Source: an uncultured Chloroflexia bacterium
Lineage (GTDB): Bacteria; Chloroflexota; Limnocylindria; Limnocylindrales; CSP1-4
Length of the DNA: 64,000 nucleotides
Direction: 5' to 3'
Assembly (NCBI GenBank): GCA_963766735.1
Contig: CAVYBU010000003.1
Location: 64,001-128,000 of the forward strand
The translations under genes were made by a program, and so were the position numbers. The notes under the pieces are model-generated. The model worked only from the letters and a program-made list of their open reading frames with translations. It searched no databases and had not been told where the DNA came from. How positions within the stretch are numbered: the first letter of the stretch is position 1; each line of letters starts with the position of its first letter. Shown here in pieces: positions 45,465 through 45,699 of the stretch.

Positions 45465-45530
45465 GGCGGAGCTCCTCTCCTGGGGTGGAACGGCCAGTGT
45501 CGCACGGGCGACTCCGGACTCCGGACGCAC

Positions 45531-45560
45531 GAACGCCGGCCCGTTGCCGGACCGGCGTTC
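45531..45560 (-). terminator. strong GC hairpin, terminator-like (no U-tract)
   Basis: GAACGCCGGUCCG-GCAA-CGGGCCGGCGUUC, 13-bp stem with a GNRA loop. Confidence 0.6.
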
Positions 45561-45591
45561 ATTTGCTACCGACCACCCGTCGGGATCGCAA

Positions 45592-45642
45592 CTAGGCGGC
45601 GATCTCCAACGAGGTGGTGCAGCAACTACTACCGTCTATCAC
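45592..45642 (-). CDS. putative 16-aa small protein MIDGSSCCTTSLEIAA
   Basis: GTG start downstream of AAAGGAGGTGAT (45659-45648); own promoter upstream and hairpin downstream; no homology recognised. Confidence 0.5.
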   Translation of the reverse strand: MIDGSSCCTTSLEIAA

Positions 45643-45670
45643 TGCACATCACCTCCTTTCGTTCGGGAGG

Positions 45671-45699
45671 ACCGTAACCGATGATCCGGTTTGGTGCAA
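45671..45699 (-). promoter_or_regulatory. sigma70-type promoter for the small transcript upstream of smpB
   Basis: TTGCAC-N17-TACGGT. Confidence 0.55.

Follow-up and report, generated by a model that had tools for sequence, protein, structure and literature searches.

We analysed a 64,000-nucleotide (nt) stretch of DNA, the window, from an uncultured Chloroflexia bacterium of the order Limnocylindrales (GenBank assembly GCA_963766735.1, contig CAVYBU010000003.1, positions 64,001 to 128,000), and focus here on a small element between its ctpA and smpB genes. The element occupies 45699-45523 on the minus strand, where inspection of the sequence located a promoter, a maximal Shine-Dalgarno (SD) sequence, a GTG-started small open reading frame (sORF) of 16 codons, and a 13-bp terminator hairpin. 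Its upstream neighbor, ctpA (47405-45996, minus strand), encodes a protein with Peptidase_S41 and PDZ domains, and its downstream neighbor, smpB (45006..45464, minus strand), encodes SmpB (PF01668) and is proposed to be fed by read-through. A first-pass annotation had described a self-contained micro-transcript upstream of smpB and situated between these two genes: every sequence feature it listed is present on the minus strand, and the gene coordinates bear out the placement. No Pfam match was obtained for a 592-aa open frame at 45745-47523 on the same strand, which runs across ctpA in a different frame; this spurious, high-GC open reading frame (ORF) masks the true 530-nt ctpA-smpB spacer. 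The 145-nt RNA of the unit has a predicted folding energy of -75.7 kcal/mol (z = -6.4), and 0/200 shuffles were as stable. Judged from its sequence and that of its relatives, the unit is very probably real and its sORF translated.

Conservation sets the element apart from the spacer around it. A BLAST search with the 531-nt ctpA-smpB spacer against 60 relatives returned a match in 35/36 genomes of the genus, nearly all of them confined to query positions ~314-475, which correspond to window positions 45682-45521, at 80-94% identity. The upstream, non-conserved part of the spacer (query positions 28-269) gave a weak second match elsewhere in the genome, at G000:C32:29435-29680(-) (66% identity, E = 9e-7), which may be a dispersed repeat. 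Thirty same-genus copies aligned with 90% mean column identity, and a covariance model built from them, R1, found a full-length match in 145/151 genomes and 46/49 genera of the family. In 150 genomes drawn from the class, whose families we denote f1 to f5, R1 matched 44/44 genomes of f1, 6/6 of f2, 47/50 of f4, 16/49 of f3, and 0/1 of f5. One strong full-length match was found per genome, any second match being far weaker; the matches at loci L090 and L092 were terminator-only false positives without smpB. The family tally includes the unpublished genomes G141 and G197 and the class tally G253, G267, G273, and G292; no sequence from these was used, and locus L061 (G141) was left out of all later steps. 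Every true copy examined in the class lies directly upstream of smpB.

The unit opens with a -35-like hexamer, TTGCAC (45694..45699), separated by 17 nt from a -10-like hexamer, TACGGT (45671..45676). A generic sigma-70 scan of the region found no promoter because its rule demands TAnAAT-like hexamers, and a TTGnnn/TAnnnT search was used instead. A TTGnnn-N16-18-TAnnnT pair stands 12-14 nt before AAGGAGG in 63/66 copies from relatives, with a spacer of exactly 17 nt in 53 of them. Given this distance, the predicted 5' end would lie only a few nt before the SD. The SD itself, GAAAGGAGGTGAT (45648..45660, segment 1), is complementary to essentially the whole free tail of 16S rRNA: the genome's own 16S 3' end reads ...GGATCACCTCCTTT(C) and pairs with it across 12 nt, a match that grows to 13 nt should the following C belong to the mature end. 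The 12-nt match noticed at the outset therefore stands, now against the cognate rRNA, and GAAAGGAGGTGAT is unique in the window (1 match at <=1 mismatch vs 0.01 expected). The sequence CGAAAGGAGGTGATGTGCAGTG is unchanged across 48 copies of family f1.

The sORF (45592..45642) starts with GTG at 45642, encodes the peptide MIDGSSCCTTSLEIAA, and ends with TAG at 45594-45592. An sORF begins 9-11 nt after GGAGG in 66/66 copies and closes with TAG, TGA, or TAA; it runs to 14-17 codons in f1, 15 in f2, and 13 in f4, and f3 copies have 28 apart from a single one with 24. The other two frames hold patternless ORFs of 2-46 codons. Across the 48 f1 copies, 17, 20, 23, or 26 nt (1, 10, 35, and 2 copies) separate the invariant start block from an invariant CACCACCT block, and the untranslated spacer between stop codon and terminator comes in 13 different lengths that cover all three residue classes modulo 3 and place the stop 20-51 nt from the terminator stem. 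Because length varies within the ORF in steps of three, and because different stop codons occupy one structural place, the ORF is most likely translated. A two-codon mini-ORF, GTG-CAG-TGA (45638-45646, minus strand), overlaps the sORF start; it recurs in the majority of f1 copies and in several from f4 but not in f2 or in the alphaproteobacterial CC2171-type units described below.

The peptide, by comparison with its frame, is poorly conserved. Only 9/66 copies end in -AA, the others ending in VD, VV, VL, GA, AV, VR, and GL, among others. The best-kept residues (T-T-S, T-T-E, or I-T-S) are encoded by nucleotides of an internal anti-SD block that are invariant even at third codon positions, and the invariant ACC ACC codons both fall within that block. 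Weak peptide conservation, with the kept residues dictated by invariant nucleotides, means that it seems to be the act of translation rather than the peptide that is under selection.

To what structure do these nucleotides belong? Three segments of the RNA, namely the SD, a mimic of the 16S tail inside the ORF, and a second SD-like stretch, are mutually complementary and yield two predicted folds of nearly equal energy. Segment 2 is the in-ORF anti-SD block GCACCACCTC (45611..45620), which pairs with the SD in the RNAalifold consensus. Segment 3 (CCGACGGGTGGT followed by CGGTAGC, 45565..45583) is its alternative partner. Between them, a hairpin formed by GATCGC (45604-45599) and GCGATC (45589-45584) carries the stop codon in its loop (45584..45604), a placement found in both the fold and the consensus. 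Pairing of segment 2 with the SD and the start codon's surroundings defines the closed fold, which is the RNAalifold consensus and the minimum free energy structure in 43/61 copies. When the SD was masked, as a stand-in for a bound 30S subunit, segment 2 re-paired downstream with segment 3 (…CGGGTGG…) over at least 5 nt in 55/61 copies, and the stop codon sat in the apical loop in 58/61. The mean energy gap between the folds is 2.2 kcal/mol in f1, 7.9 in f2, and 6.2 in f4. The predicted RNA thus has the layout of an SD-sequestering switch, with the SD paired in cis and an alternative partner that frees it. The first-pass annotation had seen the stop codon in the GATCGC/GCGATC loop and likened it to helix 5 of transfer-messenger RNA (tmRNA). 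The loop is present, but the analogy rests on loop position alone and is not supported, since the loop belongs to the SD/anti-SD toggle.

Both folds leave a trace in the alignments. In a MAFFT alignment of the 48 f1 copies, 89.4% of cells are paired in the closed structure, with 9/16 SD/anti-SD pairs never varying and hence uninformative, and 81.1% in the open structure, in which 13 pairs have changed on both sides. The middle helix of the open fold illustrates this: columns 68-97 hold AU in 21 copies, CG in 9, GC in 4, and UG in 2, with 12 unpaired, and columns 67-98 hold CG in 37, UA in 3, and GC in 2. Within the genus, compensatory changes occur at consensus pairs 71-87 and 74-84 of the stop-codon hairpin. 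Both structures lie clearly above slid controls, a contrast that is inflated because the structures were derived from one aligned sequence. Comparison across families is more telling. The SD flank and its in-ORF partner read GAGGUG..GUGCAG/CUGCAC CACCUC in f1, GAGGUGGUG/CGCCGCCUC in f2, GGUGGUGUG/CACGCCACC in f4, and GAGGUGAUGCC/GGCAUCACCUC in f27, which, like f32, is a Chloroflexota family beyond the class. That these sequences differ by lineage yet stay complementary is the best evidence for the closed hairpin.

The unit closes with the terminator hairpin (45531..45560), a 13-bp stem with a GCAA loop and one G-U pair, seen in the fold and in the 48 f1 copies, where 97% of cells are paired and 3 pairs are compensatory. 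A conserved, U-poor tail, GTGCGTCC (45523..45530), follows directly. The 9-nt tail averages 1.85 U in f1, a confounded measure, as the hairpin finder absorbs A/U-tract pairs into the stem.

Downstream of this terminator, the association with smpB is nearly without exception. In same-genus loci the element lies between ctpA and smpB on one strand in 30/30 cases, ctpA being found in 29 and the remaining locus being cut short. Of 59 true loci from other genera and families, 58 have smpB next on that strand, the exception being a contig end. Five true loci (L042 and four f3 loci) keep the smpB link without ctpA upstream, and a functional tie to ctpA, which the first-pass annotation had entertained, is accordingly not borne out. 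The gap separating the terminator stem from the smpB start is estimated at no less than 19 nt, with a median of 67.5 nt, and is <=40 nt in 7/64 and <=60 nt in 26/64 copies; it was extrapolated from the protein alignment, because most-upstream in-frame start estimates are unreliable and were not used. Such short gaps leave no room for a separate promoter in those copies. Taken together with smpB adjacency and the conserved promoter pair, they mean that smpB is most simply transcribed from the element's promoter through its terminator. From this sequence evidence, we consider it probable that smpB is transcribed through the unit in the Limnocylindrales-like class, where the element's promoter is apparently the only promoter of smpB.

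Several details of the junction deserve mention. The smpB starts of L050, L044, and the f4 loci (e.g. L087, L089, L093; f4 consensus GACCGATG) have no recognizable SD, and that of L050, CTTCCCATG, lies only ~19 nt past the terminator. In L006, the terminator 3' half and tail (GGCCGGCGTTCGTGCGTCCGG) recur right after the element in three tandem repeats (about 1660-1740), and smpB lies ~185 nt beyond the terminator. The tmRNA gene of the window is at 34128-34499 on the minus strand, 11 kb downstream of the unit, and encodes the tag ANKQPALALAA; a proline racemase gene and others stand between it and smpB. In families f4 and f2 the tmRNA gene, ssrA, is immediately 3' of smpB, giving the order module-smpB-ssrA (L087:582-947(-), L083:463-838(-)).

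Weak RNA evidence comes from Logan contigs assembled from metatranscriptome libraries, which show neither ends nor levels. A 635-nt contig (X16, record 6) spans 45166-45703 at about 95% identity and so links the element and its terminator to the 5' half of smpB in one sequence. X17 covers 45584-45699 without a difference, X20 covers 45500-45650, and X15 covers smpB up to 45509. Contig cover was absent in the four runs at 45720-45924, which take in the non-conserved spacer portion and the 3' end of ctpA, although such gaps carry no evidential weight.

Does the module exist apart from smpB? A second covariance model, R2, was searched over 150 genomes of the phylum and matched all sampled f1, f2, and f4 genomes (14/14) and 13 genomes elsewhere. 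We examined 11 of these 13 outside matches as loci, the other two having matched only the terminator part of the model. The same module was present in 8/11 loci, from five other Chloroflexota families (L229:1501-1647, L230:1501-1645, L231:1501-1649, L232:1501-1643, L235:1501-1648, L236:241-383, L237:1501-1643, and L239:1501-1669). Each combines a promoter, an SD of the GGAAAGGAGGTGATGCC type, and an sORF of 14-23 codons with another SD-like copy and a U-tract terminator; the sORF contains an exact complement of the SD flank, example peptides being MSDQPIGITSGKVS and MNDSSHCSITEGLL. Folding of the f27 and f32 modules again gives closed and open states, and the stop codon occupies the apical loop. 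Neither smpB nor ctpA was found within about 1.5 kb of the eight modules. Their neighbors are unrelated to one another (racemase, SpoIIM/LysM, Dfp, BirA, and others), and several are convergent. Hence, the module is a small gene standing by itself in these families, and the smpB linkage is specific to the Limnocylindrales-like class. The f27 module (L229:1541-1639(+)) scores 41.6 bits on the Rfam family Thr_leader, below its gathering score of 55, and no thr genes follow; the score probably reflects the hairpin-plus-U-tract terminator and not a thr operon leader.

The closest described RNA is CC2171 (RF01867), from another phylum. Rfam E-value scans of the element and its relatives gave only sub-threshold matches, among them PtaRNA1 at 17.5 bits. 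Against RF01867 the element scores 24.8 bits, with a gathering score of 75 (E = 0.017 in the 3.5 kb searched), and in a search of the whole genome it is the best match (E = 0.004); other Chloroflexota modules reach <=22.7 bits. The first-pass annotation had held that a match to a described RNA family would refute its proposal, and a match of this kind exists, weakly. Like CC2171, the element carries the 5' motif GAAAGGAGGUGAU(N)CAGUG, invariant in f1, followed by a terminal terminator hairpin. CC2171 itself measures about 150-180 nt, has its own promoter and terminator, and presents a 5' GAAAGGAGGUGAU..CAGUG complementary to the 16S 3' end. The two appear to differ in their predicted folds: in CC2171 a long-range CAUUGUC/GACAAUG helix dominates and the SD is free instead of being held in an SD/anti-SD hairpin, whereas the corresponding model columns are non-canonical or deleted in the element's alignment, with GUUGCUG/CGGUAGC at the analogous place in the open fold. 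CC2171 also has a longer sORF and does not adjoin smpB. We class the element as related in architecture to RF01867 but not as a member, and it is absent from Rfam.

The comparison also bears on CC2171, which was reportedly first described by Landt et al. in 2008. A scan of the genome collection found at least 113 alphaproteobacterial loci with the CC2171-type motif. Among the matches listed, 104/113 loci have a GUG-started ORF of 21-26 codons, with irregular other frames and with stops distributed as TGA 53, TAA 33, and TAG 27; because the search pattern already dictated the two codons that follow the start, the 'MSH' N-terminus owes part of its constancy to how the loci were selected. These sORFs (L102-L221, e.g. 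L141:4892-4960(-)) stand behind a 16-17-nt complement of the 16S 3' end and contain CUGGAUCnnCGCCUCC, a near-copy of the 16S end. No smpB was found in the 8-kb loci of the first 75 of the matches listed (0/75). R2 matches the CC2171 site in 27/50 alphaproteobacterial loci at E <= 0.01, helped by the SD motif that had been used for selection. By this pattern of frame and stop codons, CC2171 looks like a coding or dual-function RNA. A search of the literature for the alphaproteobacterial sORF peptide strings returned nothing relevant. In Rfam 15, CC2171 is among the families with one added covarying pair. It is a discrete small RNA on Northern blots in Methylorubrum, and the study concerned identified no condition that affects it (10.1101/2022.01.24.477521).

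How might such a unit work? The reading we favor, at somewhat less than even confidence, is that the element is a translated small transcript sensitive to ribosome occupancy, which in the Limnocylindrales-like class also serves as promoter and leader of smpB. While closed, the RNA would have its SD paired with segment 2, the in-ORF copy of the 16S 3' tail. A 30S subunit landing on the 5'-proximal, maximal SD would open this closed hairpin and release segment 2 to segment 3, and their pairing would build a long hairpin with the stop codon in its apical loop, to which the ribosome would then translate. A fraction of transcripts would read through the U-poor terminator and reach smpB. Ribosome occupancy close to the 5' end might also protect the RNA from 5'-3' decay in the manner of STAB-SD, so that 30S or ribosome occupancy and the fold it induces would together set the amount of stable read-through smpB mRNA. 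The outcome would be a ribosome-rescue factor coupled to the state of the ribosome pool. The specific step of ribosome-dependent control of smpB is a possibility that we hold with real doubt.

A number of observations weigh against this proposal. The terminator forms in both constrained states in the four folds inspected, so the sequence does not reveal how translation of the sORF would act on smpB output. No conserved antiterminator was found among partners for the terminator 5' arm, the sole pairing found by eye being a 7-bp helix with 3 G-U pairs that occurs in this genome and is not conserved. The terminators of f3 have good U tracts. Most P1 pairs are invariant within the family, which leaves no covariation signal there, and the metatranscriptome contigs could reflect DNA carry-over. 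Because free-standing modules and CC2171-type loci lie away from smpB, the ancestral function cannot be smpB control, and had smpB simply lost its own promoter, a linkage confined to one class could have been frozen by accident.

Known systems resemble the unit in parts. In the STAB-SD of cry3A from Bacillus thuringiensis, the 30S subunit, once bound, acts as a barrier to the 5'-3' exonuclease RNase J1 (PMC4113751). Our element shares with it an SD that complements the 16S 3' end over 12-13 nt and lies near the predicted 5' end, 12-14 nt past the -10, and this genome encodes an RNase J-type protein, identified by a domain match (RNase_J_C, PF17770, 100.3 bits, in a 577-aa open frame). Unlike STAB-SD, which does not direct initiation, the SD here is followed by a conserved start codon and a frame-conserved sORF, and the module has, in addition, an anti-SD within the ORF and another SD-like segment. 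The mRNA of E. coli arfA is a non-stop message whose product is itself a rescue factor. Our unit and the control of arfA by trans-translation (PMC10107115) both tie a small ORF to ribosome rescue and both give a central part to a hairpin that lies within that ORF or at its end; the ORF here differs in keeping its stop codon, about 60 nt before the RNA end. In the literature searched, supplementary files aside, we found no cis-regulatory leader of smpB, and likewise no small RNA work on Limnocylindria.

The main rival holds that the module has a trans function of its own, as must be the case where it is free-standing, and that smpB merely rides on its promoter: a stand-alone, CC2171-like riboregulator or ribosome-binding RNA unrelated to smpB, whose promoter was captured through a leaky terminator in a synteny that then froze. 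The free-standing modules with their unrelated, often convergent neighbors in five other Chloroflexota families fit this account, as do the conserved strong terminator and the CC2171-type units, which lay away from smpB in 75/75 loci, the first 75 of the matches listed. It gains further from the recognition of CC2171 sites by a Limnocylindria-trained model (27/50 loci at E <= 0.01, with the SD motif preselected) and from the discrete CC2171 small RNA on Northern blots in Methylorubrum (10.1101/2022.01.24.477521). Still, smpB adjacency persists across four families of the class even with a different upstream gene, there is a single strong full-length match per genome, and it is precisely the family most tightly linked to smpB whose terminator tail is poor in U, although that measure is weak and confounded. 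The account is also silent on what the RNA does, and we consider it rather unlikely. A broader idea joins the Chloroflexota modules and CC2171 in a 'ribosome-mirror' class of small RNAs across phyla, which would sense or titrate free 30S subunits and in Limnocylindria would be hard-wired to smpB. Its members would share a perfect 16S-tail complement and, inside a short ORF that is translated, a copy of the tail, often accompanied by another SD-like decoy; as a generalization this is unlikely. Of the functions suggested in the first-pass annotation, a leader that tunes smpB and a ribosome-binding small RNA both fit our findings, whereas a degron mimic does not.

That mimic, an ssrA-tag-like decoy for ClpXP or CtpA or an RNA imitation of the tmRNA tag region, was suggested by the -LEIAA end of the peptide in this genome, by 11 nt (TCGCCGC[C/T]TAG) that resemble the tmRNA tag end, and by the neighbors ctpA and smpB. 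The 11 nt do exist, but the similarity score of 17 was reached by 151/200 shuffles and the likeness is not conserved in relatives. With -AA ends in only 9/66 copies, the expected conserved ending failed to appear, ctpA linkage is lost in f3 and L042, and the C-terminal codons within the genus change in step with their hairpin pairing partner, which points to an RNA constraint. As a conserved feature, the degron or tmRNA mimic is refuted, and the idea as a whole is hardly credible. A micropeptide of 13-17 residues that acts on the ribosome, SmpB, or a protease, with the folds tuning its amount, would explain why frame, ORF length, and stop position are conserved, why different families share the loose motif M-x-[DN]-S-..-C-..-T-T-[SE]-x-E-x-x-x, and why Ser at position 2 is specified by AGY and UCN codons in different lineages. 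Most positions nevertheless vary freely, lengths range from 13 to 28 residues, and the kept residues are explained at the RNA level by the invariant anti-SD nucleotides. Nine longer peptides (three 28-aa f3 and six 21-25-aa alphaproteobacterial) had no match in Pfam or NCBIfam, and we regard a peptide product that matters as improbable. A type I toxin mRNA with its SD sequestered by metastable structures has a precedent in aapA3 of Helicobacter pylori, where successive in-cis anti-SD segments compete for one SD (PMC6733600). Here, however, the SD is maximal rather than ordinary, and the peptide is not toxin-like: it is 13-17 residues long, hydrophilic (S, T, D, E, C), and without a membrane-spanning stretch. 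There is a single strong match per genome with no sign of mobile context, and a generic scan of the opposite strand gave no promoter-like site, an antisense RNA having been sought no further. We give a toxin next to no chance. Another candidate is a classical leader-peptide attenuator of smpB that senses, for example, Thr/Ser tRNA charging or translation-inhibiting drugs. As in the trpL, thrL, and hisL attenuators, a short translated ORF has its stop at a hairpin loop before an intrinsic terminator, with a downstream gene reached by read-through, a combination found in this class only; 13-17 codons is a typical leader-peptide length, the ACC ACC codons are invariant, and a related module (f27) reaches the 41.6-bit, sub-gathering Thr_leader score noted above. 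The 1:2 hairpin of the trp leader likewise holds a stop codon in its loop. Yet the alternative pairing in our unit involves the SD and not the terminator, which forms in both states with no conserved antiterminator overlapping it, so the element is not a classical (trp-type) attenuator. There is no regulatory codon run, the only two Thr codons being part of the anti-SD block, and the module also exists without a downstream gene to regulate. With 20-51 nt between the stop codon and the terminator stem, the footprint of a terminating ribosome would be too small to reach the stem. Attenuation of this kind is very improbable.

The favored reading, a translated leader sensitive to ribosome occupancy, has consequences at two scales. 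A conserved leader with a maximal SD that is translated ahead of a rescue factor would be a testable handle on how rescue capacity is matched to the ribosome pool. More widely, an sORF that carries a 16S-tail mimic behind a perfect SD is a lead common to alphaproteobacterial CC2171 and to Chloroflexota, where this architecture is widespread and CC2171 appears to belong with it; CC2171, confirmed by Northern blot and equipped with a conserved sORF, may be reframed as a coding or dual-function RNA, for which Caulobacter would be a model organism. If the sensor reading is true, Limnocylindria would possess a direct feedback from ribosome availability to trans-translation capacity.

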